Of a stretch of 64,000 bases of DNA, positions 34,328 through 59,714 are shown piece by piece; position 1 is the first letter of the stretch; each line of letters starts with the position of its first letter. Position numbers and translations under genes: made by a program. Origin of the DNA: Armatimonadota bacterium (lineage in GTDB: Bacteria; Armatimonadota; UBA5829; DSUL01). The stretch spans positions 1,104,162 to 1,168,161 of the forward strand of contig AP024674.1 in assembly GCA_025998755.1 (NCBI GenBank). The letters are read 5' to 3'. The notes below the pieces were generated by a model, which had not been told where the DNA came from, searched no databases, and saw only the letters and a program-made list of their open reading frames with translations.

Positions 34328-35042
34328 CTGGTTTCTTTTCTGACACGTCTTCTCGCCACCCTGGAATTCTCTCTCAACCTTGCGGATGAGAGGCCGCCGG
34401 CGGCCACGTAACCCAACCAACCCGTCAAGAGCTTTCTGTAATACAACAGCAATGGCAGGAACCAGACAGAATGGGCCAATGCCAGCTTTTCGACGAGGGG
34501 GCAACTGGAAGGTCACCAAGCCTTCGAGACGGGTTTAGGAGCACGGGCGAGGGCGACATCCGCAGAACCTATCTCACCGCTTCCCAGTATTGCGCAGCGA
34601 CCCAGGTAGATGAAGCACTGGGCTAAGTGTGTCCGGTATGCGTTGAGCGTCTGTCGAGAGCCTTCGCAATCGTCTCTCAAGCCACCGATGGACCGCAAGA
34701 CTTGGGTATCTTCTTTATCCCGAACACCCGGCCCGCCTCCAAGCCCAACCTTCTCCATCACAAGCCGAGGCTTGTCCGACCGTATTAGGTATGAGATCGG
34801 GGTCTTGATGTGCTGAACACCAGCACACTTGGCCAAGGGGAGAGTTGAAAAAACCGCGGACTTTTTGGAGTTCCTGAAATGGCCGAGGAGGAGTGAGGAA
34901 CGCGGACAGCTAAATTCGTGCATAAAACGGTCCGCCAGTGGGCATCCGCAGCTCGCCCAAGTATCCGCATCAGCGGCTGTTAACTTACTGGCCTGGCCTT
35001 GGCCGGCCCGACATACAGGCGGCACACTATGAGGAGGGGGAT

Positions 35043-36392
35043 ATGACTCACTCTGAAGAGGTTCTTTCTCCGGATTTTGAGTTGTTCGGGCTGAAACGGT
35101 CCGGTTCCGGAGCCGTCACACCACCTGCCCCACCGCAACGGGAGACCATCTCACTTGAGCTGAGCCTGATCACGCCGATGTTCGGCGGCGGCGCCGTGGC
35201 AGGACAGGTGGACCCCGACAGGCCTGTAAATGCAAAGTCCATCCGCGGACACCTGCGATTCTGGTGGCGAGCCTGCTACGCCGGCCAGTTCGATTCGGCG
35301 GAGCTCATGTTCCAGCGTGAGGCTGAGATCTGGGGTGCCGCCGGTGAGTATGGGGCCGATGGCAAGCCTGTGCTCGGGCAGGGGGCGGTCGACCTTGAGG
35401 TGGCAATCAAAGAGAAAGGACAACCCGTTCCCTGTGCCACCTATCGGAAACAAGAGCGCGCCACGTTCAATGATAAATATCCAGCATACGTTCTGTTCCC
35501 CTTTCAAGGCAAGCTCGCCAAAGACCGCTGCGTAATTGAGGTACCGCCAACGAAATGCCTGGAAAAACTAACATTCGCATTGCGGCTTAGCGTTCCCGGG
35601 GAAGTTCGGGAAGAGGTAGATTGTGCGCTTCGGGCGTGGATCCTTTTCGGGGGGGTGGGAGCCCGCACACGGCGCGGTTGCGGAGCTCTTGCCCGGGTAC
35701 CAGCGTCCGATGAATGGCTTCGCGGCTTCGACGACTTGTTTTCCCAGCACGGACCGGCGAAATGGGCAATGTTTCCACAGCTTGCAGGCTCCCGCGTGCT
35801 ACTCGGAGAGCAGCAGAACCATTTGCAGGCCTGGAGCACAGCAGTCAACCTGATGCGGGATTTCCGCCAGAGACCGGACTTTGCCCGCAATCCCGGAGAC
35901 AATCGCCCGGGCCGCAGTCGCTGGCCAGAACCAGATAGCATCCGCGACGTCAGGAGGCGATGGGCACCAGGCCACGAACCCACTCACCCCGCACGTCCGT
36001 TCTATCCCCGCGCGGATTTAGGTCTGCCTATTGTCTTTCATTTCAAAGATGGCAACAGAGGAGATCCCCAAGACCCTGACCCCACGCTGGAGGCAGCAGG
36101 AGAAGACAAGACGAGAATGGCCTCAGCTATCATTCTCAAACCTGTAGCTATATCCGAGAGCCTGTCCGTTCCGCTGGTTCTGCTGCTCAACACACCGCAT
36201 ATTTACGATGAGGCAGCACCGGGGGCCAAGCTAAAGGAAGTGCGCGGACAATCTATTGCAAGAACTGAGCTCTTAAATGAGACAAAGGCTGGCCTTGTGG
36301 CGCCGATGGACGGTGAGCCCGACGTGAGAAAGGCGTTCCTGAATTTCGCGAGAAACAACTTTCATGTAAAAAGGGAGGTGAAACTGGAGTGA
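35043..36392 (+). CDS. cmr1: type III-B CRISPR RAMP protein Cmr1
   Basis: Start ATG 35043 with GAGGAGGGGG RBS. Motifs ITPMFGGGA and IRGHLRFWWRA. Confidence 0.75.
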   Translation: MTHSEEVLSPDFELFGLKRSGSGAVTPPAPPQRETISLELSLITPMFGGGAVAGQVDPDRPVNAKSIRGHLRFWWRACYAGQFDSAELMFQREAEIWGAAGEYGADGKPVLGQGAVDLEVAIKEKGQPVPCATYRKQERATFNDKYPAYVLFPFQGKLAKDRCVIEVPPTKCLEKLTFALRLSVPGEVREEVDCALRAWILFGGVGARTRRGCGALARVPASDEWLRGFDDLFSQHGPAKWAMFPQLAGSRVLLGEQQNHLQAWSTAVNLMRDFRQRPDFARNPGDNRPGRSRWPEPDSIRDVRRRWAPGHEPTHPARPFYPRADLGLPIVFHFKDGNRGDPQDPDPTLEAAGEDKTRMASAIILKPVAISESLSVPLVLLLNTPHIYDEAAPGAKLKEVRGQSIARTELLNETKAGLVAPMDGEPDVRKAFLNFARNNFHVKREVKLE

Positions 36393-38128
36393 CATACCTT
36401 GTATCCATCTCAATCGGGCCAGTACAGGATTTCATCGCGGCGGCCAGGAAGACCCGGGATCTCTGGGCAGGTTCTTATCTGCTCAGCGAGATATCCCGCG
36501 CGGCAGCTCAGGCGCTGGCCGATAAACAGTGCCAGCTGGTCTATCCCTCCCGTGCGACCGTCGTAAATAGAGATCTTTCCATACCTAACAAGATTCTGGC
36601 CATCGCACCGCAGGGTTCCTCTCCGGCAGACCTAGCCAAAGAAGCATCCAATGCCGCCGAGGAGAAATTGTTCGAGTTCCTTGATGCTGCGCTCGAAAAA
36701 GTCCGTACCGAATATCCTGAGATTGATGTAAAAGTCTGTCAAAGCCAGGTTGAGACCTTTTTGGAGCTCTACGCGGCCTGGTGGCCAATGAAGGACGGCA
36801 ATCTCGTGGAAGCCCGCGAACAGGTGGAAGAGCTAATGGCCGGGCGCAAGGCGCTCCGGGACTTCGCACAGTCGGCAAGCAGCGCCGGCGTTCCGAAGAG
36901 CAGCCTGGACCCCGGCCGGGACGCAGTGCTTGATGGCCGTAAGGTTCGGGAACACCGTACGGGACAGGAACATAACCTGGACATCAAGCAAGGCGAGATG
37001 CTGGATGCGATATCCCTCACGAAGCGCTTCGGCCCTGCCCAGCGTTTTGTATCCACCGCGAGAGTTGCCGCCGACCCTCTGATCCGTAGAATGAAAGGAT
37101 CGCCAACTCTGGAGGAGCTGCGGGGACTCGCAGAGGAGATGCTAAAGCAGAAGAGTCAGCTCTGCACATCATTCTCCCCCGAGTCTTTCCCGCAATATGC
37201 TGAGTTCCCGTACGACACATCTCTGTTTTTCAGTGAAGGGCGAGAGGAGGTAGCCGAGGATCCGGCAAAGGACCTGGTCCCAGACTTCACGCATGTGCTG
37301 GGTCGCTTTCTTCGTGATAACGAACTGCCATCTCAGTTGCCAGCCTACTACGCAATACTGGCGGCCGACGGCGACAATATGGGGAAAGTGGTCTCGGAAA
37401 AGGCGTGCTCCGGAGGACTTAAGGAGCTGGAGGAGTTTTCCAAGGTCTTGTCGAAATTCAGCGCGAACGTCCGGGAAATCGTCGAAAACCAGCATAACGG
37501 AGCCCTTGTCTATGGGGGCGGAGATGATGTGCTGGCGTTCCTCCCTCTGGACAGAGCCCTGCCCTGCGCGAATGCTCTCCGGCAGGAGTTCAGCAACTTG
37601 ACTGGGTGCACAATGTCGGTCGGCATCGCGATCGCTCACTACGCTGCCCCGTTGCAGACCGCCGTTCGGTGGGCTCGGGAAGCAGAGCGAGACGCCAAGG
37701 CGCAATCGGGCAAGAATGCGCTCGCCGTCCACCTGCACACGCGCACAGCCGGAGAAGAGCACATCGCGGCCAGGCACAGTTGGGATGATGACCCGGTCAA
37801 CCGCTGGGATCTCTGGACCACGATGCTGGATGAGCGGAAACTCCCATCCCAGGCAGCATATCACTTGCGCCAACTGGCGTGCGAGTTCAACGGGATAATG
37901 GCGAGCGACGTTCTTTACAAGGAGGCTGAACGGATCCTGAAACGCAAGCGCGCGGACTCCGGAACCGAGGAGCTTGACCAGGATGCTGTCGCAAATATTC
38001 TGAGGTTTGCCGGAGGGAAGAACAACATGAGCGCACAGTCCCTTCACGGCGCTGTTAACGAGATCCTGATAGCCCGGAAGATCGTGCCAGCACTAACGTT
38101 GACACGTCAAAAAGGAGAGCAGGAATGA
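36389..38128 (+). CDS. cmr2: type III-B Cas10/Cmr2, short HD-less form
   Basis: GTG start overlapping the cmr1 stop (GTGA). N-terminus TYLVSISIGPVQDFIAAARKTRDLWAGSYLLSEI. Cyclase GGDD motif present (LVYGGGDDVLAFLP). Only 579 aa, and no HD motif precedes the SIGPVQ region. Confidence 0.85.
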   Translation: MTYLVSISIGPVQDFIAAARKTRDLWAGSYLLSEISRAAAQALADKQCQLVYPSRATVVNRDLSIPNKILAIAPQGSSPADLAKEASNAAEEKLFEFLDAALEKVRTEYPEIDVKVCQSQVETFLELYAAWWPMKDGNLVEAREQVEELMAGRKALRDFAQSASSAGVPKSSLDPGRDAVLDGRKVREHRTGQEHNLDIKQGEMLDAISLTKRFGPAQRFVSTARVAADPLIRRMKGSPTLEELRGLAEEMLKQKSQLCTSFSPESFPQYAEFPYDTSLFFSEGREEVAEDPAKDLVPDFTHVLGRFLRDNELPSQLPAYYAILAADGDNMGKVVSEKACSGGLKELEEFSKVLSKFSANVREIVENQHNGALVYGGGDDVLAFLPLDRALPCANALRQEFSNLTGCTMSVGIAIAHYAAPLQTAVRWAREAERDAKAQSGKNALAVHLHTRTAGEEHIAARHSWDDDPVNRWDLWTTMLDERKLPSQAAYHLRQLACEFNGIMASDVLYKEAERILKRKRADSGTEELDQDAVANILRFAGGKNNMSAQSLHGAVNEILIARKIVPALTLTRQKGEQE

Positions 38129-39276
38129 CCACTGTTCTGCTTATCCAGCCGCGTGACCCGCTTCTGTTCCGCGATGGACGCCCCTTCACCGCCGACCCTG
38201 GCGCGATGGCGCGGTCGCTGGACTGGCCGATGCCTTCCACAGTGGCGGGAGCTGTGCGCACGCTGATCGGTAACGCAAACGGGTTCGCCTGGCAGCAAGA
38301 CGGCCCGCATCTGGCCTTGCAGATCCGTATCCGGGGCCCGTTGGCTGTTGTGGAAGGCAAAGACGGAAAGTGCCGCATTTATGTGGCCGCTCCTGCGGAC
38401 GTCCTGTGGTTCGAGGATGGCAAAACATGCGAGGTTCTGCGGCCGCTCAGAACTCTGCCCGAAGGGGCTGGGTGTACGATGCCCGCTGGACTGATGCCGG
38501 TGAGCGTGAGCGCCAGAGAGAAGCCCTACACGCGGATCGCGAGCTGGCCGATGGATTCGATGCTCTCCTTCCTGCTGGAAGGCAAGGTGCCTGATGCGAA
38601 CGAGTGCATTGAGCGCTTCCCGCGGGAGGCTCGCACGCACGTCCGGATGAACGCACAGACTCTAACGGCAGACCCTGGCGGTCTGTTCTCGACGGAGTCG
38701 CTATGCATCCCCGATGTAACGATCCAACGGACAAACGCACGCCGCACCGGCCTGCTTGTTCAGATAGTGTCAGACTGCGACGTTCCCCAGAACTGCTTTT
38801 TCCCGTTGGGCGGCGAACGGCGTGCCGCGATAGCGATGGAAGCTCATGGGCAGTGGCCGGAGCCGCCCGGAGAGTGGGTGGAGAAGCTGGCGAAAACCGT
38901 GTCCGGGAAGAAACGGATCAAGCTCCAGCTGGTAACGCCGGCGGTGTTTGCCAACGGATGGCGTCCGGGTTGGATCGGAGATGACCTGACTGGAACCGTA
39001 CCTGGAACAGGGATCCAGGTGAAGCTTGTCAGCGCGTGCGTCCCCCGCCCTATCGGCTTCAGTGGGTGGGACTACAAAGAGGGCAAACCCAAAGCGGCAA
39101 GCTACGCCGCGCCTGCGGGAAGCGTGTACTTTTTTGAGATCACGGGTGGTGATGTGGATAAGGAGGAACTCGGCAAGTTATTCCTGGCGCCGCTCTGTGA
39201 CGAGTCTCGATTCAGTAACGATGGTTTTGGCCTGGCGTTGCCGGGTATGTGGGATTACGCCGGAGAGGCACAGTGA
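38125..39276 (+). CDS. cmr3: type III-B Cmr3
   Basis: MTTVLLIQPRDPLLFRDGRPFTADPG… is the canonical Cmr3 N-terminus. ATGA overlap with cmr2. Confidence 0.85.
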   Translation: MTTVLLIQPRDPLLFRDGRPFTADPGAMARSLDWPMPSTVAGAVRTLIGNANGFAWQQDGPHLALQIRIRGPLAVVEGKDGKCRIYVAAPADVLWFEDGKTCEVLRPLRTLPEGAGCTMPAGLMPVSVSAREKPYTRIASWPMDSMLSFLLEGKVPDANECIERFPREARTHVRMNAQTLTADPGGLFSTESLCIPDVTIQRTNARRTGLLVQIVSDCDVPQNCFFPLGGERRAAIAMEAHGQWPEPPGEWVEKLAKTVSGKKRIKLQLVTPAVFANGWRPGWIGDDLTGTVPGTGIQVKLVSACVPRPIGFSGWDYKEGKPKAASYAAPAGSVYFFEITGGDVDKEELGKLFLAPLCDESRFSNDGFGLALPGMWDYAGEAQ

Positions 39277-39285
39277 GGAGATCCG

Positions 39286-40197
39286 ATGGGTAACGCGATT
39301 ATTTTCTTCCACGCTCTGACGCCCATTCACACGGGCACTGGGCAGGCGGTGGATGTTATCGATCTGCCGGTTGCCCGCGAGAAGGTGACAGGATGGCCTT
39401 ATATTCCTGGGTCGAGCATCAAAGGAGTCCTGCGGGACGCAGCCGAGAAGGGGGATAAGCACAAGCGGGCCTTCGGACCGGAGACAGAGAACGCGAAGGA
39501 ATCAGCTGGCAACCTGCTGTTCTGCGACGCCAGACTGCTGTGCTTTCCGGTGCGGTCTTTCAGTGGAACCTTCGCGTGGGTGACTTGCCCTTCTGCCATC
39601 ACGCGGCTCAGCAGGGATTGCGCGGCCGCTGGACTCGATGGGCCACCCCCCTTCACACTGCCGGAGAACTGGGAATTCGCCAGCGTCATTACTACTCCGC
39701 AGACCGCACTGCGAACGCAAAGGCAAAAAAATGGGAACGACGTACGCATCATCCTTGAGGAGTACGATCTTACACCCCTGGAGTACGATCTTACACCCCT
39801 GGAAGAGAACATCTCCAAGCTCGCGGACTTCATCGCTGGAAAAGTTTTTTCCGACAGCGCTTCGCGGGAGCATTTCCTGAAACGTTTTGCCCTGGTCCAC
39901 GACGATATGTTCAGCACTCTCACGGAAACTGCCACTGAGGTGGTTGCGCGCATTGCGCTGGATGAGCGGAAAAAAGTGGTCAAACAAGGCGCACTGTGGT
40001 ACGAGGAGGCAGTACCTGCAGAGGCGATATTCGTTAGCCCTCTCATCAACGCGGAGCGGAATCCCGAAGACGACCTGATCGCCGACTATCTCGTCAAGCA
40101 ACGACTTTCCCCGGTGCAGATCGGCGGGAACGCCAGTGTGGGAAGGGGCCTGGTTCGGATCGTGCTGAACGGCTCGGAGCTTAACGGAGGGCAGTAA
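39286..40197 (+). CDS. cmr4: type III-B Cmr4 (Cas7 backbone subunit)
   Basis: FHALTPIHTGTGQ…WPYIPGSSIKGVLRDAAE. Carries an in-frame 21-nt tandem duplication (EYDLTPL x2). Confidence 0.85.
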   Translation: MGNAIIFFHALTPIHTGTGQAVDVIDLPVAREKVTGWPYIPGSSIKGVLRDAAEKGDKHKRAFGPETENAKESAGNLLFCDARLLCFPVRSFSGTFAWVTCPSAITRLSRDCAAAGLDGPPPFTLPENWEFASVITTPQTALRTQRQKNGNDVRIILEEYDLTPLEYDLTPLEENISKLADFIAGKVFSDSASREHFLKRFALVHDDMFSTLTETATEVVARIALDERKKVVKQGALWYEEAVPAEAIFVSPLINAERNPEDDLIADYLVKQRLSPVQIGGNASVGRGLVRIVLNGSELNGGQ

Positions 40198-40198
40198 T

Positions 40199-40645
40199 AT
40201 GAGCAGGCAGCTTGAACTGATGGGTCAGGCTATCGATCACATCAGGGCACAAGAAAACGGGGACGAAGAATTCCGCAGAATCTACGGGGGCCTCTATCAC
40301 AAACTGCCTGTGCTCATCAGGACGTGCGGGCTCTGTCAGGCTCTAGCGTTTGTGAACTCCAAGACACAAGCACAAGGTTCTAGAGGCTCCGCGCACAAGG
40401 CGGTGATGAGTGACGTCACGAACGTCCTGACGAAATTCTGTGGGGTGAGAGTCGCTGAGGACGACAAAGGGGATATCCTGGCCGTGATACGAGAGGAGCT
40501 GCAATCCTGGGAGTATGCTATGGCAACGCGCATCCTCCTGCAGTCTCTGGTCTTTCATAAGCGGTTTGCGGAATCCATCCTCGGAGTCGAGGCCTCGGAC
40601 TACTTGGCCGAGGACGAGCGGGTAGCGGAGATTCAGGTTCAATGA
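40199..40645 (+). CDS. cmr5: type III-B Cmr5 (Cas11 small subunit)
   Basis: 148 aa alpha-helical protein (…FRRIYGGLYHKLPVLIRTCGLCQALAF…) in the position expected for cmr5. Confidence 0.8.
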   Translation: MSRQLELMGQAIDHIRAQENGDEEFRRIYGGLYHKLPVLIRTCGLCQALAFVNSKTQAQGSRGSAHKAVMSDVTNVLTKFCGVRVAEDDKGDILAVIREELQSWEYAMATRILLQSLVFHKRFAESILGVEASDYLAEDERVAEIQVQ

Positions 40646-41688
40646 GGGATGTCCTTTCTAAGTACAAGACCTCCCACGCAGGTCTACTGCTGGAACGGCT
40701 TGTTCCAGACTTAAGCGATTCTTCCACAAAGCCCGAGAAGATCGCTTCGCTGATGAGTACTCTCGAAGACTGGTGCGGCTCCGATGATAACGGGAAACTT
40801 TATCAACACGCATTCAACTCACTCCAAGAGCAGCTCCAGCGCTTGCCGAACATTGTGCTGAAACAACTTAAAGTCACAGACCGGATCATCGTGGGTCTTG
40901 GCGCCGAAAATCCGATGGAAACTTCCATTACCCTGAATCGGTTGTTCGGGGTTCCTATTATCCCCGGATCGGCGTTGAAGGGTGTTGCCCGGAGATATGC
41001 CGAGATGTTCGAACCGGAGGATAAGGAAAGAAAGGGGGATCACACAAAGCAGATCCAGTTCCTGTTCGGCGACGTCAACTTCGGGGGCAGGATCACATTC
41101 TTCGATGCTTGGTGGGTGCCAGACCAACAAGAAAAACCGCTGTGCAAGGACGTGATCACTGTCCATCATCAGGAATACTACAGGACGAAGGGCAAGAAGC
41201 CGCCTACCGACTTCGACGACCCGAACCCCATGAGCTTCGTCAGCGCAAAGGGCACTTTCCTCTTCGCCGTACAGGGGCCTACCAAGGAATGGTCGCAGCT
41301 GGCGATGGCCCTCCTTCAGGGCGGACTCTGTCATCTCGGGGTCGGAGCGAAAACCAGCAGCGGCTACGGAAGGTTCCAGGACGATACGGCGGTGTTCGGT
41401 TCGTCAACGCAATCTGCTGGGCAAGCATCAAGCGCTGAGCCACTTATAGATCCTTCCGCTATGCCCGACGAAGCGCTAAAGACCGCTATTGAGAGTCTCT
41501 CTCGTGCGAATATGAAGGACTTACTACCAAAGTTCGCGGCCCGGTGGGACACCATTCAGAGCGATCACATGAAACGGCAGGTTGGGCAGATCATTAGAGA
41601 GAAATCTCGGATATCAGGTGTGAGCGGCCCATGGCTCAATCCCATCAACAACTTTCTACAAGGAAAGAGACCCAATCGCAGACGGTAG
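40642..41688 (+). CDS. cmr6: type III-B Cmr6
   Basis: RLFGVPIIPGSALKGVARRYAE…GGRITFFDAWWVPD. ATGA overlap with cmr5. Confidence 0.8.
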   Translation: MRDVLSKYKTSHAGLLLERLVPDLSDSSTKPEKIASLMSTLEDWCGSDDNGKLYQHAFNSLQEQLQRLPNIVLKQLKVTDRIIVGLGAENPMETSITLNRLFGVPIIPGSALKGVARRYAEMFEPEDKERKGDHTKQIQFLFGDVNFGGRITFFDAWWVPDQQEKPLCKDVITVHHQEYYRTKGKKPPTDFDDPNPMSFVSAKGTFLFAVQGPTKEWSQLAMALLQGGLCHLGVGAKTSSGYGRFQDDTAVFGSSTQSAGQASSAEPLIDPSAMPDEALKTAIESLSRANMKDLLPKFAARWDTIQSDHMKRQVGQIIREKSRISGVSGPWLNPINNFLQGKRPNRRR

Positions 41689-41709
41689 TGTCGCTAGGTT
41701 ATTACGAAT

Positions 41710-42993
41710 ATGAGGATGGAGGATGGAGGATGGAGGATGGAATCCGCTGTGCAGCCTACAGTCTCTCCCAATGCCACTGAGGAACCTTCAGACCTTACCC
41801 TGCTCACGACGCTCGGCACTGGCAAGTATGTTGATGTGACCTATCAATACGGCCAACAGCAGTTCACCACCAGCCTCGTTCCTGTGGCTCTTGCCGAATG
41901 GTTCAAGCCCACCAAGACGATCGTGCTGTTGACGGAACAGGCAAAGAACTCAGACTACTGGCAATTGCTCAGTAAGAAAGTCCAGAACTGTCAGGAAGCC
42001 AAGATCCCTGAAGGCCGATCTGAGGAGGAATACTGGAAGATATTCGACATCGTTACCTCAGCACTCAGTGGGTCTAAAGAGGTTATCCTGGATATCACGC
42101 ATGGCTTTCGCTCTCTGCCGGTAATTGTTTTGCTGGCTGCTGTGTTCCTTCAAGAAAGCCAGGGGGTGAAGATGAGGCACATCTTTTACGGAGCGTATGA
42201 AGCTCGTGACAAGGACAAAGGAGAGCCTGCGCCCATCTTTGACCTCTCGCCAATGCTTGACCTAGTGCAATGGGCTGTCGCCACTAACCGGTTCCTCGAG
42301 ACCGGAGACGCTCGCAAACTCGGCCACCTTCTTGAGGAGATCCAGCGGAGGTTTTACACATCTGTAGAGGTCTCGGCAGGAAAAGAGCCGCCAAAGCAGC
42401 TTCAATCTGCTGGCCAGGCACTGTCTAAACTGTCCCAAGCCATCGATCTTGTCCGCCCTGCCGACATACGCGAATACAGTCAGAAACTTATGGAAGAGCT
42501 GGTCACGGCAAAAACAGAGATCCAACTATTCGCCCGCCCGTTCGAACTTGTGCGGGAACACGTTCAGGCCGAGTTCGGAGGTTTGAAGCAGGGTGATCTT
42601 GCCTCCCAACGGGATCTCATCAAATGGTATCTGGATCATGGTCGTATATTGCAGGCAATGATCTTTGCGAGGGAATGGGTGATATCTTGGACGGCTGAGG
42701 CCATCAACCGCGGGGACCTGAAAGACCGTGAAAGCATTGAGCACGCGCTGAATCAGGTGATTCACCGGAGTGAAGGACGTGACCCAACCAAGGCAAAGGA
42801 CATTGACCCAGACATCGTGAAAAGCGTGAACGACTTGGAGGCGAGGGAGCAGCTGAAGGATATCTGGAGTGAGCTGGGAGGCTTGCGCAATGACCTTGCC
42901 CATTGTGGTTTCCGCAAGGACCGCAGAAAAGTGAACAGGCTGCCTGATCAGGCCAAGGAGATCTACTGTCTTCTGAGGGAGCTGGAGTGTTGA
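41710..42993 (+). CDS. csx1: Csx1 family CARF-HEPN protein (DxTHG motif)
   Basis: CARF signatures TLGTGKY and DITHGFRSLP. C-terminal HEPN R-x4-H motif (RNDLAHCG). The more likely start is the in-frame ATG at 41737 (MESAVQ), preceded by an (AGGATGG)4 repeat. Confidence 0.75.
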   Translation: MRMEDGGWRMESAVQPTVSPNATEEPSDLTLLTTLGTGKYVDVTYQYGQQQFTTSLVPVALAEWFKPTKTIVLLTEQAKNSDYWQLLSKKVQNCQEAKIPEGRSEEEYWKIFDIVTSALSGSKEVILDITHGFRSLPVIVLLAAVFLQESQGVKMRHIFYGAYEARDKDKGEPAPIFDLSPMLDLVQWAVATNRFLETGDARKLGHLLEEIQRRFYTSVEVSAGKEPPKQLQSAGQALSKLSQAIDLVRPADIREYSQKLMEELVTAKTEIQLFARPFELVREHVQAEFGGLKQGDLASQRDLIKWYLDHGRILQAMIFAREWVISWTAEAINRGDLKDRESIEHALNQVIHRSEGRDPTKAKDIDPDIVKSVNDLEAREQLKDIWSELGGLRNDLAHCGFRKDRRKVNRLPDQAKEIYCLLRELEC

Positions 42994-43726: not shown

Positions 43727-43768
43727 GGCAATCATCCCTGGGGCGACGGCTGGTCGAAAAGGATTCCG

Positions 43769-44860: not shown

Positions 44861-44982
44861 CTCGTACCACAAAATCACCGCACCGCTAATGCGGCAAGCC
44901 CCTTGCCGTCGCCCCGGGCACGCTTTAGCCCTTGATAACTGAGGGGTGAGATTGCCCCCTTGGTTGCAACGATTCCTCAATC

Positions 44983-47705: not shown

Positions 47706-47715
47706 AGTAGCCTCT

Positions 47716-50427: not shown

Positions 50428-52165
50428 TGCTTTCCTCCTCAACCGAATTCACCGGCGCCGCGCCGGCCTTCCTGGCGCGGTCGGCAGCAAGCTGCTGGTA
50501 GTATCCAAGGGCGAACAGGCTCTGCTCTTCGAGCTTCAAAGCTCCAGGCGGTCTGTCTCCGATGCGAGCCCAAATGTCTGCGATCCTCGTCTCGAAGTAG
50601 CGCGCCCGTCCCGGCTCCAGCTTGTTCAGATGGAACTGGCTGAGCCGCGCCAGTCGACCCAGGACCAGTGAGGGCGTGGCGCTGGCGGCAGCGTAGAACC
50701 TCTGCACTACGCCCGCGCCGACGTCCCCCTGCGCGGCATGCTGAAGCTGCGCATATTCCGCCATCAGCCTCCCGCAGTGATAGGCGGGAGATGGGTGATC
50801 TTCATTCAGATAGGGTTTCACGTCAGTGTCTCCTTCCCGGACAAGAAATGCCTTTATCAGCCCGAACCGCGCGTGGTTGGCGGCCTGGTCGTCGAGGATG
50901 TCACACCGCGCGCGGGCAAGCGCCTGGGCCACAAGCTGCCGCGGGATCGGTCCTGCGGTCAGCGCGGAGCGCCAGAGCGCAGCCACCGCCGGGGCGGCAA
51001 GGTCATCGAGCTCCCTCACCGTAGAGCCCAGCACCGCCATGAACTTGGGTGGCGGCGCCAGGCCGGTTCCGTCCCGGTTGACGACGGAGAAGTCGTCGAA
51101 CCAGCCATTGATGTTGCGGACAAGCTCCTCGAACTGTCCTTCCATCCAGTCCCGTACCATGGCCCTTCCCGCTGCCCCGCTGATAGTCAGGGCATAGAAG
51201 TGGTTCTGTTGCAGATCGGGCCTCTGACCGGTCCGGATGGCCTCCAGCAGTTCTCGTGCCCGCTGCTGAGCGGTGAGTTTTTCCGTTTCCTCTGCGCTTT
51301 CGAGCCACTCCAGCGGGTCTTCATCAGCGGCAACGCGGTCCTTGAACCAGTGGGCCACCTTCGCTTCCGCCAGGCGCCGGCTATGGCGGTCCAGCAAGTG
51401 GTTCAGGGCGGCGCGATATGCGGCCGCAGCCTCTTCCGAGACTGCTCCGTTTTCGGACTGAGAGAGACCGAACGACTGGAAGGCGTCCTTGTCGTATCCG
51501 ATGAGCGAGGAGCCCATCCCCATCCCACCCACGTCGGAGAGTCCCGATATTTTGGGATGGGTGCGAGCCGGTTCGACGGTCTGGCCGGTGGCGAGGCAGA
51601 TCATCTGGCTTCCCGTTCCCTGCCTGGCCAGCGTGCGGCGGAACGTCTGCCACCAGGCGTGCCAGGAGGAGTCCTCAACCGGAAAGGCCCCATCCACCCG
51701 GATGGTTATCTTATCCGTCGGGCTTGCCTTTTGGCCTGAGAGCTCAGCCCGGATCTGCGCCAGAACGGCATCATCCGCCAGGCTGTCCGCCACCGGCTTC
51801 AGGCAGGGCGTAACGGTTGAGGCATCACGCAGCAGCCGCACGAAATACCCGTGCTTTGCTTCGATGTCGCGGATTTCTTTCTCGGATGCCCCGCTCTTCG
51901 CCCAGTTGGCCACCACCTGACAGGTATCCACCAGGAAATGACTCTTGGTCTGGCCTCCTGAAGTCAACTCCGGCTGCGTGAGGTCCGGACATTTCGTGAA
52001 TCTACGTCCCGGATCCCGCTTGTCGGAACGGTTCCCGAGAGGCAGAACTCCCAGGAACTGACCATTCGCATCGAAATCCAGGGCCCACCGGACGTCCTTC
52101 GGTGCGAATCCTGGCTCAGTGACGAGCTGCTCGCGGCGCGCGTATTCCACCAGAAGGTCAAGCAT
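50420..52165 (-). CDS. cas8c: type I-C Cas8c (Csd1)
   Basis: Start ATG 52165 ([32 protein letters not shown]…) with GGAGG RBS. 8-nt overlap with cas7. Confidence 0.85.
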
Positions 52166-52877
52166 GTCTTCCCTCCTTCGGCGGTTTAAGCACCCGGTCC
52201 GACTCAAACGGCGGCACCTCCAGCACTCCGCCTTTCACCTCCGCCTCAAACAGCGTGATGAACGGCCGGTCCGTGGACTCCCCCGGCCGCGAGAGGTCGA
52301 ACACGTCGTAGAGCATCCATCCGATACGCGCATCCACCTGCGCTGGAGGCGGCCCCGTTTCCCCGTGATCCAGAAGACGGAAGAAAGCCGGGAACTCCCT
52401 GCAGCCCAGATAGGGCTGATAGAAGCACTTCCCGCTTCCTGCAATGCGCCGGAACTTCGCCTCCATCTCCACAACACGGTCCTCGAAGCCCGGCCAGGGC
52501 CGCACTTCGGCGTGGATGCGGTAGCGGACGTTCTTGAGCGCCATGGTCTGGCGTTGGGTGTTCGCCTCCTCTCCGGCCCCGGCCAGAATGGTCTGCGGCG
52601 GTGCGCTTCCACTCATCCACTGTCCGATCGTCCGGTCGGTAGGCGCCTTGCACTTGACCTCGTTGCGCCTCAAAGCAATGAACCGCGGCGGCTCAAGCAT
52701 CTCGATCTGCACAATCTGCCAGCGGTATTCGTGCCGGTTGACGCAGATGGCATCGAAGATGCCACGGGCCGCCGACGGCGTGATGACGGGGTAGCTGAAG
52801 CGCTCCACCTTCAACTCAGGACGGGTGAAACAGGCCAGTGCCCCCCAGACTTCAATGGTCTGACGCGATGGCGTCAT
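52158..52877 (-). CDS. cas5: type I-C Cas5c (Cas5d, pre-crRNA processing subunit)
   Basis: IEVWGALACFTRPELKVERFSYPVITPSAARGIFDAI… is the Cas5d N-terminus. Confidence 0.85.
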   Translation of the reverse strand: MTPSRQTIEVWGALACFTRPELKVERFSYPVITPSAARGIFDAICVNRHEYRWQIVQIEMLEPPRFIALRRNEVKCKAPTDRTIGQWMSGSAPPQTILAGAGEEANTQRQTMALKNVRYRIHAEVRPWPGFEDRVVEMEAKFRRIAGSGKCFYQPYLGCREFPAFFRLLDHGETGPPPAQVDARIGWMLYDVFDLSRPGESTDRPFITLFEAEVKGGVLEVPPFESDRVLKPPKEGRHA

Positions 52878-52990: not shown

Positions 52991-55222
52991 TCACCTCCCT
53001 TCACCACAGGGCACCGGCTTCAGATACCGCAGGATGGGATCGCGTGGCCGGGGCCTGAACACGGAAACCGAATGTGGTCTGGCCCTCCGCAGCCATTTGG
53101 CGGTCAGGCCGGTCTCTTCCACCTCTGTGCGGAGTCTCTCGAACTCCTTCAGGTCATAGGGGACCAGCACATTGATGGCATCATCCGCTATCAGGCGGAA
53201 TTCTCTAGCCACGGTCTCGAAGTCCTGCCGTTTGATCGCGTCCTGCAGATCGGGGCAATGAGACTCGGGGCGGGAGAGATCGTAGAGCTCTCTAAAATAG
53301 CGCCGGAAAAGCTCCGGGTCATTCAGATCCAGACCATCAGGTCCCAGCCTGTTCAGCAGAGCCTCCGTTACTGCTGCCGCCTGCTGGTAACCTCCAGGCG
53401 GGTAAGCATTGTCCTCGGGCCGGAAGACTTCCACCACACCGCCGTCCCCAAGCAGTCCGTTACGGTTGCAGCGGCCTGCTGCCTGGGCAATGGATTCCAT
53501 TGGTCCCATGGCTCGAAAAACAATGGGGAAATCCAGATCCACGCCGGCTTCCACGCACTGCGTGGAGACCAGACGGCATTCGACTCTGCCGTTTTCCAGA
53601 GCCTGCTGCACCTCCTCGAGCACCTTCTGCCGGTGGGCAGGGCACAGATTGGTGGAAAGATGGCGGGCGTCTGCCGCCCCTGCTTCCCGCAAACGGCGCA
53701 CGAGCTCATAAGCGTGACGCTTGAGATTGACAACACAAAGCACCCGGGGATGCGCCTTGAGCTTGTCGGCCAACTCATCCCAACCAATGGCTGTCTGTCC
53801 GGGCCACCTGACGCGGGTACGCCGCAGTCGGTTGAACAGATTCAAGCGGGAAGGGGTGATCTCGACTGGTTGCCACCCACAGTTTCGGTCCTCCTGGACG
53901 TGTTCAGCCAGTGCCTCAAATGCGGGTTGAGTAGCGGTGGCCATAACAATGCTGGTGTTGTAGCCCGCTGTCAGTCTGGAAAGCGCCTTCAGGCTTGGAA
54001 TGGTCAGCGAGACCGGCAGGGTCTGAACTTCATCGAACAGAACAATGCTGGAAGCGATGCGATGGAGTTTCCGGCAGGCTCCCGGCCGGTTGGAGAATAG
54101 AGACTCCAGGAACTGGACACTCGTGGTGAGGATCACGGGAGCGTCCCAGTTCTCTGCAAGAAGCCGTTCGCGGCGGACCTTCTCGTCGACGGAGTCGGTC
54201 TCCTGCGCTTCCGCGGCGCGCGTCCCCGTCAGGGTATGGTGTTCAATGATATAGCCTTGGCCGAAAACGGGCTCCAGGATGCGCCGGTATACCGAAACAT
54301 TCTGGTCAATGATGCTCAGATAAGGCAACACGAAGATAAGCCTTCTGGACCCGGTACGGATGGCTAGCTTCAAAGCAAATGCCAGCATCGCCAGGGTTTT
54401 GCCGGATCCTGTCGGGGCCGTAAGGGTGAACACTCCTGCCGATGAAGCCCGATCGGCTGCTTCCAGACAGGCTGTCATCAGCTCCGCCCGGGCCCGTAGC
54501 ACCTCCGCATCGGCATTCGTGTTGCTTTGCAGATGCTCCACGTGCTGCAGGACCGCATCCAGCGCTCGTTCGGGCTGCAGGTCAGGCGCGTGTGGCCGTG
54601 CCTGGCCACACTTGAAATGGCGCTCGGTGTCCAGGAAGTCGGCGTCTACCAGGGCCGAAAAGAGCATCCGCACGTCCAGCATTGCGGAGACTGTCTGCTG
54701 GATTGAGCTGCCATAAATCGAAGGCGGTGAATAAGGCGGCAGCAAGCCGGCCGCTGTGAGGCACTCCAGCATCGCCGTTGTATCCGAGACAGACAGACGA
54801 GGCCCCTGCGGATGAGTCTGCTCCCATTTCGTGGGGTCCAGGCGGGCCAACGCATCCTTGCTGATCTCTTTAAGCCCCTGGTGGTGTCCCTGCACGGCTA
54901 CGGCCGCGGCAACACTGCGGAAGCGCTTCAAGGCCGCCCACGCGCCTGGTGACCAGTGATCAACCGCGGCGCTCTGTCCCTGCAGGCGTCGCTGAAAGGG
55001 TTCGCCGAGTTTGCCCGCATCGTGAAGGGCTGCCGCGAGACAAGCCTCTTCACCAGCGTTAAAGACCGAGGCAAACTGTGCCGCAAGCTCCGCAACGCCC
55101 TGGAGATGATCCTTTAGAGGCTGGGCGTGGCCGCAAGGATTCTGGCTGTGTGCGTAGCATTCCTGGAAATCTGTCAGCCCAGGTGTCAACGAGAAACCTC
55201 CTTGCGGGAAAGTTTGCCGCAA
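52991..55222 (-). CDS. cas3: Cas3 (HD nuclease plus DEAD/DEAH helicase)
   Basis: N-terminal HD motifs (CYAHSQNP…H…ALHDAGK). Walker A APTGSGKT. DEAH-like FDEVQ. True start may be the TTG near 55186, preceded by AGGAGG. Confidence 0.9.
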   Translation of the reverse strand: MRQTFPQGGFSLTPGLTDFQECYAHSQNPCGHAQPLKDHLQGVAELAAQFASVFNAGEEACLAAALHDAGKLGEPFQRRLQGQSAAVDHWSPGAWAALKRFRSVAAAVAVQGHHQGLKEISKDALARLDPTKWEQTHPQGPRLSVSDTTAMLECLTAAGLLPPYSPPSIYGSSIQQTVSAMLDVRMLFSALVDADFLDTERHFKCGQARPHAPDLQPERALDAVLQHVEHLQSNTNADAEVLRARAELMTACLEAADRASSAGVFTLTAPTGSGKTLAMLAFALKLAIRTGSRRLIFVLPYLSIIDQNVSVYRRILEPVFGQGYIIEHHTLTGTRAAEAQETDSVDEKVRRERLLAENWDAPVILTTSVQFLESLFSNRPGACRKLHRIASSIVLFDEVQTLPVSLTIPSLKALSRLTAGYNTSIVMATATQPAFEALAEHVQEDRNCGWQPVEITPSRLNLFNRLRRTRVRWPGQTAIGWDELADKLKAHPRVLCVVNLKRHAYELVRRLREAGAADARHLSTNLCPAHRQKVLEEVQQALENGRVECRLVSTQCVEAGVDLDFPIVFRAMGPMESIAQAAGRCNRNGLLGDGGVVEVFRPEDNAYPPGGYQQAAAVTEALLNRLGPDGLDLNDPELFRRYFRELYDLSRPESHCPDLQDAIKRQDFETVAREFRLIADDAINVLVPYDLKEFERLRTEVEETGLTAKWLRRARPHSVSVFRPRPRDPILRYLKPVPCGEGR

Positions 55223-55313
55223 TGTCTTTTCCTTCCTTCCTGCCTGACTGTGCCCCGGTGCGCCTCTTTTTGGGCGAGTTTACACGTAGACTAACTTCAA
55301 GGGATGTCAAAAA

Positions 55314-55328
55314 CTGTCAGTCTGACAG
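55314..55328. promoter_or_regulatory. 15-bp perfect palindrome CTGTCAGTCTGACAG upstream of cas3
   Basis: Perfect dyad symmetry ~90 nt upstream of the cas3 start. Followed by AATATTTTTTGAC. Candidate operator or bidirectional terminator. Confidence 0.3.
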
Positions 55329-55815
55329 AATATTTTTTGACTATTGAGGCCGCGGGAGCCGTGTACGCGGAAGGAGGGCGGACCACGAAGCCTTACGGGT
55401 AAGGAAGGAAGGCGGCCTTCCCACAGGGAAATTCCCTCACTGGAAAGCAGGCTCGCCGGGTGATGTATCAGCAGAATCACCTGCCGGGAGAGGCCGAGCC
55501 GGACGAACGCTCGTTGCGGAGGGGAGTGGCACGCGTTCGAAGGGTTGCAAACTTCACCTGTTCCAAGCAACGACGGGATGCTGAATGCAGGGAAGAACCT
55601 TTCGCCGGCCATACCGATAACTGGCATTAGAGGCAGGCTGCCCGATGTGGGAGACAGACGGGTGGCGAGATCCAAACGGCGGCGAGCTTGCTGCTCCGAT
55701 AAAACGGCTTGGCTGTTGAATCCTGCGGAATGTCTAAGACAGCCCTGATTAACAGCGTGAGCGGTTATTTAGCGCATCTGCGGAAGGCTATCAAGAGAAA
55801 GGATGGCTCGCCGAA

Positions 55816-56166
55816 GTGATTCGCCAGGAGCAACCGGAGATTTCGCAAAATGTAGGCATCTACTGCACTGCCCACGCCATTCGGCGTTATCGCGAGCGGG
55901 TCAGTCGTGTGCCGCTGACGCCGGAACAGGCCAGGCGCGAAATTGAAGAGGCTATGCGACGGCCGCTGTTCGCCCGCGAGCTTCGACCGTCCGGCCTGGT
56001 GCTTTGGGGATGTCGCAACGCCCATGGATTCTGCTTTACGGCGGCCACGCCTCCTCTGGATCGGCATCCGGGCTGGCTCGTCGTCCAGACGGTCGGGCCG
56101 TGGTGGCACTGGCACGAAGTGAAACGGCTATGGCGCGAGGAACGTCGCCGCGTGAAGCAAAAATGA
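55816..56166 (+). CDS. hypothetical protein (weak DUF4258-like H…R..ER pattern)
   Basis: 116-aa ORF between cas3 and the array-2 leader (…YCTAHAIRRYRERVSRVPLTPEQARREIEE…). No confident family. Confidence 0.3.
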   Translation: MIRQEQPEISQNVGIYCTAHAIRRYRERVSRVPLTPEQARREIEEAMRRPLFARELRPSGLVLWGCRNAHGFCFTAATPPLDRHPGWLVVQTVGPWWHWHEVKRLWREERRRVKQK

Positions 56167-56289
56167 CGGGGAGGCCGCGGAATAGGAAACTTATCTTCGG
56201 ATGGCTACTGCCACACGCCTGGTTTTGCCAACAGGCATGTTTGCCGGGCTCCAGGCCGGCCGAACTCCTCTCTGTCGAGGGCGCTGTCC

Positions 56290-56507
56290 CTGAACCGGAA
56301 GAGCCCATCTGCGCCGGGATTGGGATCTGCGCGGATCGGTAGTGAGGGCGTCTCACGAAGGAGGTCCGCGCACGATTTCGGGGCTTTTCACGCTCGGCAG
56401 TAGGAAGAAGCTGCAAAAATCATGGGAGAGGGGAGGAATTGACGGGAGGAGCCGAGAAGTGCCAATTTGAGCTCGGGAAGGGCCTATCGGGGCGCTTCTC
56501 AGGGTGG
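56290..56507 (+). promoter_or_regulatory. CRISPR leader of array 2
   Basis: Contains a block homologous to the array-1 leader in inverted orientation. Immediately precedes the first repeat. Confidence 0.5.
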
Positions 56508-59500
56508 GTTGCACCGGCCTTTCGAGGCCGGTGAGGATTGAAACAGCGACTCCGCAGCGGAGCCTGCAGCCTGCGTTGCACCGGCCTTTCGAGGCCGGTG
56601 AGGATTGAAACCGCCCAGGCCGGCACCTGCGCATGCCGTCTGTTGCACCGGCCTTTCGAGGCCGGTGAGGATTGAAACTCGACCGGCGGTACAATGCCGT
56701 CCGCTACTGTTGCACCGGCCTTTCGAGGCCGGTGAGGATTGAAACTGGCGCTGGTGCCGGGATGCAGTCTACCGAGACTGGTTGCACCGGCCTTTCGAGG
56801 CCGGTGAGGATTGAAACATCGCACCGCCGACCCACCGCCCGGCGGCGTGGTACAGTTGCACCGGCCTTTCGAGGCCGGTGAGGATTGAAACGCCCTACTT
56901 CCCCATCATCGTACGCCCGTAGTCGTTGCACCGGCCTTTCGAGGCCGGTGAGGATTGAAACGTGCAAATTTCGCGCTACCGACACAGGAGTGTTGCACCG
57001 GCCTTTCGAGGCCGGTGAGGATTGAAACCAAACGTGACAGGATATTGCGATGTCGTCACCGCTCGTTGCACCGGCCTTTCGAGGCCGGTGAGGATTGAAA
57101 CATCTATCCGCCCCTGCGGACGGGGAGCACACAGTTGCACCGGCCTTTCGAGGCCGGTGAGGATTGAAACTGACGCAGTATGGGTTAGCGTCAGCCGGGC
57201 TGTAGTGTTGCACCGGCCTTTCGAGGCCGGTGAGGATTGAAACATGCTGCGTCCGCGGATATGTCCGGCGGACCAGTGTCGTTGCACCGGCCTTTCGAGG
57301 CCGGTGAGGATTGAAACCTGCGGCCGCCGCTCATCCGCAGGATGCCGCCACCAGGTTGCACCGGCCTTTCGAGGCCGGTGAGGATTGAAACAGCTTACGG
57401 CCGCGTGGCAACTCGGGCCACGCGTAGTTGCACCGGCCTTTCGAGGCCGGTGAGGATTGAAACCCCTCCAACCTGATCCGCACCTTCCGCGATGCCGGAT
57501 GTTGCACCGGCCTTTCGAGGCCGGTGAGGATTGAAACCTGTAGTCGCCAGCAGCGCCTGGTGGCGTGTAACGCGTTGCACCGGCCTTTCGAGGCCGGTGA
57601 GGATTGAAACCCGTAGGGGGGCCGCGCCACCCTACGGCTGGCAGGTTGCACCGGCCTTTCGAGGCCGGTGAGGATTGAAACATAGCAGGGGGGCGCATTA
57701 AGGCGCGCGATGTGGTAGTTGCACCGGCCTTTCGAGGCCGGTGAGGATTGAAACGTTCCATCCGCCCGTTGAACCGTGAACGTGTGCTGGTTGCACCGGC
57801 CTTTCGAGGCCGGTGAGGATTGAAACCAGAGTACCTCGAGACTTTGGACGAATATTAATACTGCGCGTTGCACCGGCCTTTCGAGGCCGGTGAGGATTGA
57901 AACTCAATGCACGGGCGATCAGTTTCTCGGGCCGCTGCATGTTGCACCGGCCTTTCGAGGCCGGTGAGGATTGAAACACGTCGGCGTTCGCCTGTGGCTG
58001 GCCGCCGGACTGGTTGCACCGGCCTTTCGAGGCCGGTGAGGATTGAAACAGGAAGCTTCCGCAATCCTAAATTCGCGGGCTACGTGGTTGCACCGGCCTT
58101 TCGAGGCCGGTGAGGATTGAAACGCTGCATGCGCTGCTGATGGAGCGGCTGCGGATGAGTTGCACCGGCCTTTCGAGGCCGGTGAGGATTGAAACTAGAA
58201 TTTTTCGGGGAGACGGTCGACCAGACGAAGTTGCACCGGCCTTTCGAGGCCGGTGAGGATTGAAACCCATCCTCCCGCCACGGCTCTTCCGGCCAGTCGT
58301 TGCACCGGCCTTTCGAGGCCGGTGAGGATTGAAACACCGTTTCCGCTTCGTTGAAGCCGTCCATCAGGTGTTGCACCGGCCTTTCGAGGCCGGTGAGGAT
58401 TGAAACATGCCGATACTCGCTCCGCTCGCCTGTCCGGTATGTTGCACCGGCCTTTCGAGGCCGGTGAGGATTGAAACAGTTCTACCATTGGTACTCCTCC
58501 TCTACCGGTCAGGTTGCACCGGCCTTTCGAGGCCGGTGAGGATTGAAACTGGCGGTAATGCGGCGGTGAATGCGTGGCCGACGATGTTGCACCGGCCTTT
58601 CGAGGCCGGTGAGGATTGAAACCTTTGACGTCGGCGCGGATCATCGCCGCCGCGACGTTGCACCGGCCTTTCGAGGCCGGTGAGGATTGAAACCAGCTGG
58701 GAATGGCAGCCGCCAGGCCCAGCCGGTTCGTTGCACCGGCCTTTCGAGGCCGGTGAGGATTGAAACACGCCTCCGGGTTTCGTGGCATCCCCCAATGTGC
58801 GGTTGCACCGGCCTTTCGAGGCCGGTGAGGATTGAAACCTGGATCGCTGGGCGCGGATGGAAACTGGAGTCCGGGGTTGCACCGGCCTTTCGAGGCCGGT
58901 GAGGATTGAAACAGCTTTATCTCGATCGGCGATCATGATTCGACGCAATTGTTGCACCGGCCTTTCGAGGCCGGTGAGGATTGAAACGAGGATTCCACAC
59001 AGAAGGTATAGGTCGTGCGGACCGTTGCACCGGCCTTTCGAGGCCGGTGAGGATTGAAACAGCGCACCGCCTGGAACGGTATGCTGAGGCCATCCCAGTT
59101 GCACCGGCCTTTCGAGGCCGGTGAGGATTGAAACGCGCTGTAGAGCTCGTCCCAGGAGCTCTCCGTCACCTGTTGCACCGGCCTTTCGAGGCCGGTGAGG
59201 ATTGAAACAAGCGAATAGTGTAAAATGTAGCAGCAGACCCACGTTGCACCGGCCTTTCGAGGCCGGTGAGGATTGAAACGCAGTGGGCTTCGACGCGCGC
59301 GCGGATGTAGAGTCCACCGTTGCACCGGCCTTTCGAGGCCGGTGAGGATTGAAACCCTCCCTCCGGAGAAGGGAGTTGACTACCTCCAGGTTGCACCGGC
59401 CTTTCGAGGCCGGTGAGGATTGAAACCGTGCGCCTTGCGGATCGCCGCCTGCGCGCGTTCGTTGCACCGGCCTTTCGAGGCCGGTGAGGATTGAAACTGA

Positions 59501-59714
59501 AGGGCAGGTGAATCCTACTGGGCGGTATGTTGCGTTGCACCGGCCTTTCGAGGCCGGTGAGGATTGAAACTCGAACTGCTGGGCGCGGAAGAGGAGGATG
59601 TCGAGGTTGCACCGGCCTTTCGAGGCCGGTGAGGATTGAAACTTCACCTCCTGTGGCAGTGGCGTGCGGGACGTTTCGTTGCACCGGCCTTTCGAGGCCG
59701 GTGAGGATTGAAAC
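56508..59714 (+). CRISPR. CRISPR array 2 (45 repeats, 44 spacers)
   Basis: 37-nt repeat GTTGCACCGGCCTTTCGAGGCCGGTGAGGATTGAAAC. An 8-bp stem CACCGGCC/GGCCGGTG is followed by an 11-nt tail ending ATTGAAAC, which is typical for type I-C. Spacers are 32-37 nt. All 45 repeats enumerated by eye. Confidence 0.95.

Follow-up and report, generated by a model that had tools for sequence, protein, structure and literature searches.

The window analyzed here, a stretch of 64,000 nucleotides (nt) from the genome of an Armatimonadota bacterium (contig AP024674.1, positions 1,104,162 to 1,168,161), contains a chromosomal island of CRISPR arrays with their cas genes. The island lies between a tRNA-Ser gene at its left edge (tga; 34240..34328, plus strand; Rfam tRNA, 60.8 bits, and ARAGORN) and a tRNA-Met gene at its right edge (cat; 62062..62133, minus strand; ARAGORN). 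It is a composite of a type I-C system and a type III-B (Cmr) module, with one repeat shared by two inverted arrays and no adaptation genes in the III-B part. The Cmr module, the cas6 gene of which appears to be dead, probably takes its guides from the I-C arrays.

The genes were identified with NCBIfam, Pfam and PADLOC models. These agree with an earlier note, made from the letters of the sequence, in its listing of a complete I-C operon, cmr1-6, Csx1 and two further accessory genes; that list missed a cas6 remnant at 43466-43773. The I-C operon is contiguous and complete on the minus strand, containing the signature genes and cas4-cas1-cas2, with no cas6 among them. It comprises cas3 (52991..55222; cas3_HD and cas3_core), coding for an HD nuclease and helicase that is 100% identical to the annotated NCBI Cas3 of an Armatimonadota metagenome-assembled genome (MAG); cas5c (Cas5d; 52158..52877; TIGR01876, 106.8 bits, cut-off 85); cas8c (Csd1; 50420..52207; TIGR01863, 291.9 bits, cut-off 218.65); cas7 (Csd2; 49450..50442; TIGR02589, 301.3 bits, cut-off 182.25); cas4 (48791..49441; TIGR00372, 122.1 bits); cas1 of the I-C type cas1_DVULG (47716..48762; TIGR03640, 496.8 bits, cut-off 385); and cas2 (47409..47753; TIGR01573, 63.9 bits). 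The product of cas5c is the I-C endonuclease for precursor CRISPR RNA (pre-crRNA), its best PDB matches being I-C Cas5 entries named 'pre-crRNA processing endonuclease' (E = 8e-42).

The III-B module occupies the plus strand, and all six cmr NCBIfam equivalogs score above their cut-offs. The first gene, cmr1 (35043..36392; TIGR01894, 45.6 bits, cut-off 28.65; PADLOC Cmr1), has its longest open reading frame (ORF) from 34938, and an independent assembly (L001) calls the gene from 35043. It is followed by cas10/cmr2 (36389..38128, 579 amino acids; TIGR02577, 188.6 bits, cut-off 79.4; Pfam Cmr2_N and palm2), cmr3 (38125..39276; TIGR01888, 100.8 bits, a narrow pass at a cut-off of 100.4), cmr4 for the backbone RAMP (39286..40197; TIGR02580, 231.3 bits), cmr5 (40199..40645; TIGR01881, 36.6 bits, cut-off 27.9) and cmr6 (40642..41688; TIGR01898, 139.6 bits). 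Cas10 starts with the Cmr2_N domain, has no HD domain at its N-terminus and carries a GGDD cyclase motif in palm2 (within LVYGGGDDVLAF). Given this combination, the expected output of the module would be cyclic oligoadenylate (cOA) signaling together with RNA cleavage by Cmr4, and not cleavage of single-stranded DNA.

Three accessory genes follow cmr6 on the same strand. A Csx1-type CARF-HEPN effector of the CARF2 clade (41710..42993; PADLOC CARF2--CARF_HEPN, E = 2.6e-107; TIGR02221, DxTHG) is matched by the PADLOC model over residues 31-423 and has the HEPN motif RNDLAH at approximately residues 393-398, near the C-terminus; it thus combines a CARF domain with the C-terminal HEPN R-X4-6-H motif that defines the Csx1/Csm6 class. 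The next gene, csx15 (42987..43367; NF040560, 145.3 bits, cut-off 35), belongs to a family of ring nucleases or sponges for cyclic tetraadenylate (cA4). Proteins of the Csx15 family bind cA4, and some members slowly degrade it (PMC13148439). The last gene codes for a CARF7 (APE2256)-DUF2103 protein (43769..44860; PADLOC CARF7--CARF_DUF2103, E = 1.3e-84; Pfam PF09651, 95.7 bits), which matches APE2256-family structures (e.g., PDB ID: 3qyf and PDB ID: 7pq2) and is related to Crn1-type ring nucleases. Against the ring nuclease equivalog NF040951 it scores 33.6 bits (cut-off 600), and its C-terminal half fits the DUF2103 fusion model. The module abuts the trailer of array 1 and has no array of its own. 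As the earlier note had stated, it is also without adaptation genes: there is no second cas1 or cas2 match anywhere in the window, and the only arrays present carry the repeat of the I-C lineage.

A cas6 pseudogene (43466..43773, plus strand) separates csx15 from the APE2256 gene; it retains the N-terminal ~82 codons, with a frameshift near codon 58, followed by a 526-bp internal deletion. Its 86-codon ORF (43466-43726) gives weak Cas6 N-terminal matches, and the sole PDB match is to residues 23-77 of Thermus Cas6B. In a HMMER search of 1.84 billion representatives, proteins of 259-314 amino acids align only to residues 1-95 of the remnant (best E = 8.6e-21), and 10/10 of the full-length homologues checked have the C-terminal Cas6 domain PF10040. 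The assignment is settled by synteny, since a relative (L053/L054; Cas10 60% and Cmr3 87% identical) has the order cmr1-6, Csm6-like gene, cas6, APE2256 gene. Its cas6 is full-length as DNA but frameshifted. The 526-bp deletion is common to the window and MAG Uz-U4-28 (L040, ~85% nucleotide identity) with identical boundaries (43710/43726 in the window, corresponding to 16846/17373 in L053), and the window has the frameshift near codon 58 in addition. An intact cas6 is located directly 3' of cmr6 in a more distant Fimbriimonadales relative, while the closest full-length Cas6 proteins to the remnant occur in cas6-APE2256 pairs of III-A loci. No other Cas6 of the remnant's family was found within the window, a search that did not extend to divergent Cas6 families. 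As judged from these lesions, the III-B module of the window is without a functional local cas6.

Both arrays are composed of the same 37-nt repeat, GTTGCACCGGCCTTTCGAGGCCGGTGAGGATTGAAAC, in opposite orientations, as had been claimed. A search for the exact repeat that tolerated <=3 mismatches, with shuffled sequence as the expectation, returned 75 copies, 75/75 of them perfect (0 expected in shuffles), of which 30 occupy the minus strand (45056-47190) and the other 45 the plus strand (56508-59714). A 31st repeat of array 1, at 44984-45020, is degenerate: it matches over the first 26 nt and has diverged in the final 11. The counts of 31 and 45 repeats given earlier are therefore correct. Array 1 (44984..47190, minus strand) contains 30 spacers of 34-38 nt and array 2 (56508..59714, plus strand) contains 44 spacers of 30-40 nt; the period is ~72 nt, as expected (Tandem Repeats Finder), and the spacers of both arrays are all unique. 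In the minimum free energy fold, the repeat forms a 9-bp stem followed by an 11-nt 3' tail, AGGAUUGAAAC (z = -3.8). A hairpin with an 11-nt tail is the geometry of I-C repeats, and Cas5c acts on such repeats in characterized I-C systems. The repeat ends in ATTGAAAC, which is the usual type III 8-nt tag. Armatimonadota relatives that have only I-C (L039 and L047; Cas1 74% and Cas3 66% identical) carry the repeat GTTGCATCGGCCCTTCGGGGCCGGTGAGGATTGAAAC, with compensatory changes in the stem. Because the repeat lineage is shared with I-C-only relatives and the repeat has I-C geometry, the arrays are I-C arrays, and the Cmr module is a guest at them.

Each array is preceded on its cas-proximal side by a leader. 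Leader 1 (47191..47408, minus strand) is 95-97% identical to the leaders of the related loci L002 and L043. Leader 2 (56318..56507, plus strand) is an inverted copy of it: the reverse complement of 47191-47380 and 56318-56507 are identical at 141/189 positions (75%). The homology had been anticipated correctly, but its length had been put at ~70 nt, and it extends over ~190 nt. Perfectly conserved blocks include TCTGCGCGGATCGG, CACGAAGGAGGT, GCTGCAAAAAT and ATTTGAGCT; leader 2 keeps every block that is conserved among the I-C leaders of the clade, and both leaders share blocks with the leaders downstream of cas2 in the I-C-only relatives. The latter is one of four independent, agreeing sequence features which support the earlier proposal that the two arrays point away from the cas operon. 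The other three are the 3' end of the repeat (ATTGAAAC), the position of the degenerate repeat, with its damaged 3' part, at the distal end of array 1, and the common polarity of variant spacer pairs in the two arrays. Transcription itself would presumably run in the same direction. Array 1 is thus the canonical I-C array (cas2-leader-array), and array 2 is an extra inverted leader and array upstream of cas3. A terminator-like hairpin just past the array-1 trailer (44875..44897, minus strand) is weak, the scan having returned 3 sites vs 3.7 expected.

Leader 2 is separated from cas3 by a region of ~1.1 kb without a conserved ORF (55223..56317), of which 55223-55895 is orthologous to the cas3-upstream region of relatives. 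The region is unusually long, has ~68% nucleotide identity to relatives and is possibly regulatory; at 55314-55328 it contains a perfect palindromic hairpin of 6 bp, accompanied by runs of T and A. Two ORFs in it (55307-55675 and 55765-56115) are unlikely to be genes, as neither matches a family and stop codons break both of them in the orthologous DNA of L045 and L046. For the next 425 nt, from the end of the conserved cas3-upstream region to leader 2, none of the fetched loci has a homologous sequence. The neighborhood of leader 2 was also inspected for cas gene remnants, such as a second I-C operon since deleted would have left, and none were found.

In two spacer pairs (A1_11/A2_9 and A1_6/A2_16), the members are variants of one protospacer that begin in the same register and share their polarity, which argues for a single adaptation machinery as the supplier of both arrays. 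At the leader end of array 2, the first nine spacers (56545-57170) differ in length from the others: 6/9 measure 30-33 nt, with 4/9 exactly 30 nt, vs 34-40 nt for 64/65 of the remaining spacers (hypergeometric P = 3e-6 for the short class at the array-2 leader end). The newest spacers of array 1 measure 35-36 nt. The distinct length class may point to separate, recent acquisition at array 2. In comparison with the closest strain, Cas4 is the least conserved adaptation protein (92-93%; Cas1 and Cas2, 99-100%). The fifth array-1 spacer from the leader (A1_5) is internally repetitive, containing CTGCGGCCGC three times, and several spacers are GC-rich palindromes. The targets may be repetitive elements; no matches were found. 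Spacers compared with the rest of the window, as a check for self-targeting, give chance-level matches of 11-19 nt only.

Among the I-C loci collected for comparison (38 retrieved with Cas1 and 4 with Cas3), ~24 extend >1.5 kb upstream of cas3, and 0 of these ~24 have an array there, all their arrays being located downstream of cas2. None of these loci contains cmr genes within 10 kb. Relatives whose Cas3 is 66-71% identical lack array 2, and a metagenome scan with the leader blocks returned cas2-side leaders only, with the contigs of the closest MAG ending before the expected array-2 position. The second array is, on this comparison, lineage-specific within I-C. The architecture had been called uncommon, which is true within I-C and does not extend to other subtypes, in which paired inverted arrays around cas genes are familiar.

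The closest relatives also record rearrangement and turnover. L043 (1788-8839) and L045 have a much larger cas2-side array of at least 98 repeats, with an identical repeat and no spacer in common with the window; likewise, spacers that would be shared after an inversion between arrays were sought in L043, L045 and L002, and none occurs in both the window and any of these loci. This indicates that spacer turnover has been complete between strains with 99% identical Cas1. The first 373 nt of L043 (L043:1-373) are the tRNA-Met flank (86.5% identity to window 62225-61849) and adjoin the trailer of its cas2-side array, so that the two strains have the I-C operon in opposite orientations relative to tRNA-Met. 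Either an inversion across inverted arrays or an independent insertion at a tRNA hotspot would fit. An operon placed between inverted arrays could possibly be flipped by recombination, as the orientation in L043 hints.

The III-B side is conserved in part and exchanged in part. The cmr1-6 and accessory genes are intact ORFs in three lineages (the window, L040 and L053). In the comparison with L040, the ratio of nonsynonymous to synonymous substitution rates (dN/dS) is 0.16-0.31 for cas10 and cmr3-6 and 0.60 for cmr1. These values show purifying selection on the cmr genes. Along the operon dS is mosaic, varying ~15-fold from 0.09 (cmr1) to 1.35 (cmr6), which suggests recombination. L040 and L053 share with the window the junction of the APE2256 gene with the array-1 trailer, degenerate repeat included, which makes the association an old one. 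This conservation supports the description of the locus as one unit, which is otherwise too strict: the array trailer of one strain, the Cas1 of which is 99% identical, is without a Cmr module, and the effector cassette has been swapped. The window has CARF2-HEPN and Csx15 (41387-43459), while L040 (L040:6700-8348) and L053 (L053:15315-16604) have an unrelated CARF1-HEPN gene (Cas02710/Csm6-like) with no detectable similarity. The exchange for a different intact CARF-HEPN gene indicates ongoing selection on the signaling output. Taken together, the intact genes, the dN/dS values, the conserved junction and the exchanged cassette argue against simple decay.

These features are probably best explained by a shared supply of guides, in which the I-C adaptation genes feed both arrays, the Cas6-less Cmr complex takes its guides there and Cas5c is the likeliest cutter. 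One Cas1-Cas2-Cas4 module would supply the two arrays, the leaders of which face the operon from both sides, and each array would be transcribed outward from its own leader. In the pre-crRNA, Cas5c would cut where the repeat hairpin has its 3' base, and Cascade (Cas5c-Cas8c-Cas7) together with Cas3 would use the resulting crRNAs against DNA. The Cmr module may take guides from the same two arrays, because there is no other source of guides and the repeat has the type III-style 8-nt tag ATTGAAAC. On binding of a target RNA, the HD-less Cas10 would make cOA and thereby activate the Csx1-type CARF-HEPN RNase, with Csx15 and the CARF7 protein damping the signal; Cmr would then provide PAM-independent (protospacer-adjacent motif), transcription-dependent back-up immunity. 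The gene content, repeat identity, leader homology, cas6 decay and purifying selection on the cmr genes are seen in the sequence; transcription, the sharing of crRNAs, the processing route and the cOA species are what we infer here.

That III-B uses I-C crRNAs, as the earlier note presumed, is less trivial than it seems, because its own cas6 is dead and I-C itself has no Cas6. To our knowledge, I-C is alone among the type I subtypes in not bringing a Cas6 to generate the 8-nt handle needed by type III. With the local cas6 dead, the guides for Cmr must be cut by another enzyme. Cas5c is the most parsimonious candidate since it is the only enzyme known to cut this repeat; it might leave an 11-nt handle, AGG-AUUGAAAC, which contains the 8-nt tag AUUGAAAC and could be trimmed or tolerated. 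The cut could alternatively be made by a Cas6 encoded elsewhere in the genome, which is nearly as likely, or by host RNases. The sharing of type I crRNAs by III-B through communal arrays has been described, as has the back-up of I-F by the III-B system of Marinomonas (PMC5576922), and in the III-Bv system of Synechocystis crRNAs mature independently of Cas6 through RNase E and RNase J, a documented host-RNase route (PMC12464536). For the locus itself, Cas5c-dependent and Cas6-independent biogenesis of Cmr crRNAs, with a 3-nt trim (e.g., by an RNase J-like enzyme) or with tolerance of the longer handle, and with or without an invertible operon, can be put forward only tentatively.

Several observations weigh against the favored explanation. 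Cas5c leaves a handle of 11 nt, and type III complexes use one of 8 nt; a literature search found no published instance in which Cas5c/Cas5d products serve a type III complex. Neither leader gave a promoter in a scan with the sigma-70 consensus, although that consensus may not suit the phylum. The transcription of the arrays, the ends of the crRNAs and their loading into Cmr are predictions. No protospacers were found with 3 conserved or degenerate spacer cores scanned against IMG/VR, nor with both whole arrays in a blastn search against INPHARED phages. Given the recombination in the cmr operon, part of the signal of purifying selection may predate the loss of cas6. Finally, the window covers 64 kb of a 3.29-Mb contig (genome ~3.3 Mb), which makes a trans-acting Cas6 possible. 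Under this alternative, Cmr would still use the I-C arrays, its crRNAs would be cut by the Cas6 of another CRISPR-Cas system in the genome, and the local cas6 would have been redundant. A distant relative (L056) has two adjacent type III modules, one of them with an intact Cas6, and genomes with multiple systems occur in the phylum. Against this, Cas6 is usually repeat-specific, such an enzyme would need to recognize an I-C-type repeat, and the window holds no further member of the remnant's family, divergent Cas6 families aside. In published systems, the absence of cas6 is frequent at III-B, III-C and III-D loci, which depend on other systems of the same genome, and the processing of I-F and III-B is mutually specific (PMC5576922). 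We regard a Cas6 acting in trans as possible, with odds clearly below even.

The remaining explanations deny function to one part of the locus or question the assembly. The III-B module could be a decaying relic in which cas6 was lost first and Cmr was left without guides or function, as the independent cas6 lesions in three lineages, the close strain without Cmr at its array trailer and the relatively high dN/dS of cmr1 would suggest. It is nevertheless improbable, as the six cmr, effector, csx15 and CARF7 genes are full-length, the low dN/dS of cas10 and cmr3-6 holds at dS up to 1.3, and the replacement of the effector cassette by a different intact CARF-HEPN gene implies that selection on signaling continues. 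A slightly smaller chance is given to array 2 being a passive by-product of inversion or duplication, an orphan that is no longer acquiring spacers or expressed. Its absence from ~24 related I-C loci, the flipped operon relative to L043 and the 25% divergence of leader 2 from leader 1 are compatible with that origin; on the other hand, leader 2 retains every conserved I-C leader block of the clade, 45/45 repeats are perfect in what is the larger of the two arrays, and this array contains same-register variants of protospacers sampled by array 1 as well as the distinct recent length class at its leader. Assembly error from identical repeats is by far the least probable explanation. Short-read assemblies are often broken or wrongly joined at CRISPR repeats, and arrays form the ends of several related contigs, but here the spacer sets are entirely different, the leaders differ as well, and each joins unique sequence (the cas2 end and the cas3-upstream region, respectively). 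Moreover, the window comes from a single 3.29-Mb contig, and the Cmr side is found again, as far as the trailer, in the independent assembly. A shared supply of guides from two arrays continues to be the explanation that we favor.

In a search of 34-61 kb at Rfam gathering thresholds, one tRNA was the only hit, with no CRISPR-DR or other RNA family. From the array-2 trailer to tRNA-Met extends a low-GC patch (59810-62102; GC 0.47 at 60-61 kb vs ~0.61 for the window), which codes for two ORFs of 258 and 341 amino acids. Neither has a Pfam family, and the longer one has a weak methyltransferase-like PADLOC match only; L043 has an unrelated, uncharacterized ORF at this position. Upstream of the island (23984-30748), two very large predicted secreted proteins of 894 (beta-helix) and 1334 (fn3/Ig-like domains) amino acids are encoded, which are apparently unrelated to the CRISPR locus.

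I-C is one of the most common subtypes, and the locus is a natural test case for an under-studied question, namely the source of guides for type III effectors in I-C hosts. Should the guides of Cmr be supplied by Cas5c or by housekeeping RNases, the known routes of crRNA biogenesis would widen, and it could be explained how mobile type III modules settle beside I-C systems or parasitize I-C arrays. Type III crRNA biogenesis that depends on Cas5c, independently of Cas6, would be without precedent. With its two inverted arrays, the locus also provides a chance to study how Cas1-Cas2-Cas4 chooses between two diverged leaders.

Among known systems, the closest geometrical parallels belong to other subtypes and phyla. 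Loci 1 and 2 of Sulfolobus islandicus REY15A flank an adaptation cassette and are shared by I-A and two Cmr modules, although an explicit description of inverted geometry was not found in the literature; the I-F arrays CRISPR1 and CRISPR2 of Pseudomonas aeruginosa PA14 are paired around the cas genes. Like the locus described here, both have cas-proximal leaders, one repeat type on both sides of the cas genes and one adaptation module for both arrays, but unlike it they have a working Cas6. In gene order and in the absence of cas6, the operon resembles canonical I-C systems of the Dvulg type (e.g., Desulfovibrio vulgaris, Bacillus halodurans and Neisseria lactamica; PDB ID: 8dex and PDB ID: 8g9t), which also have leader and array downstream of cas2 and a repeat the 3' hairpin of which is followed by an 11-nt tail with ATTGAAAC at its end. 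It differs from them in the second inverted leader and array upstream of cas3, and in the III-B module at the trailer of the canonical array.

As in the III-B system of Marinomonas mediterranea that accompanies I-F, a Cmr module without adaptation genes is located beside type I arrays it can use, and as in the I-F/III-B cases the module has been gained, lost or exchanged between close strains (PMC5576922). The chimeric III-B/Cas6f loci of Marinomonas sp. MWYL1 and Shewanella putrefaciens 200 keep cas6f (PMC5576922); in contrast to an I-F partner, the Cas6f of which generates the 8-nt handle, the I-C partner here is without Cas6 and the cas6 of III-B is a pseudogene. The III-Bv system of Synechocystis likewise combines a III-B-like effector with the lack of a dedicated Cas6, and its RNase J, a 5' exonuclease, is a precedent for trimming, but it has its own array and repeat, no I-C array and no Cas5c (PMC12464536). 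Communal arrays for type I and III-B are already well known, and the present locus is a further example, exemplifying two known principles: the sharing of arrays between systems, and the backing up of type I by a type III module without adaptation genes of its own.

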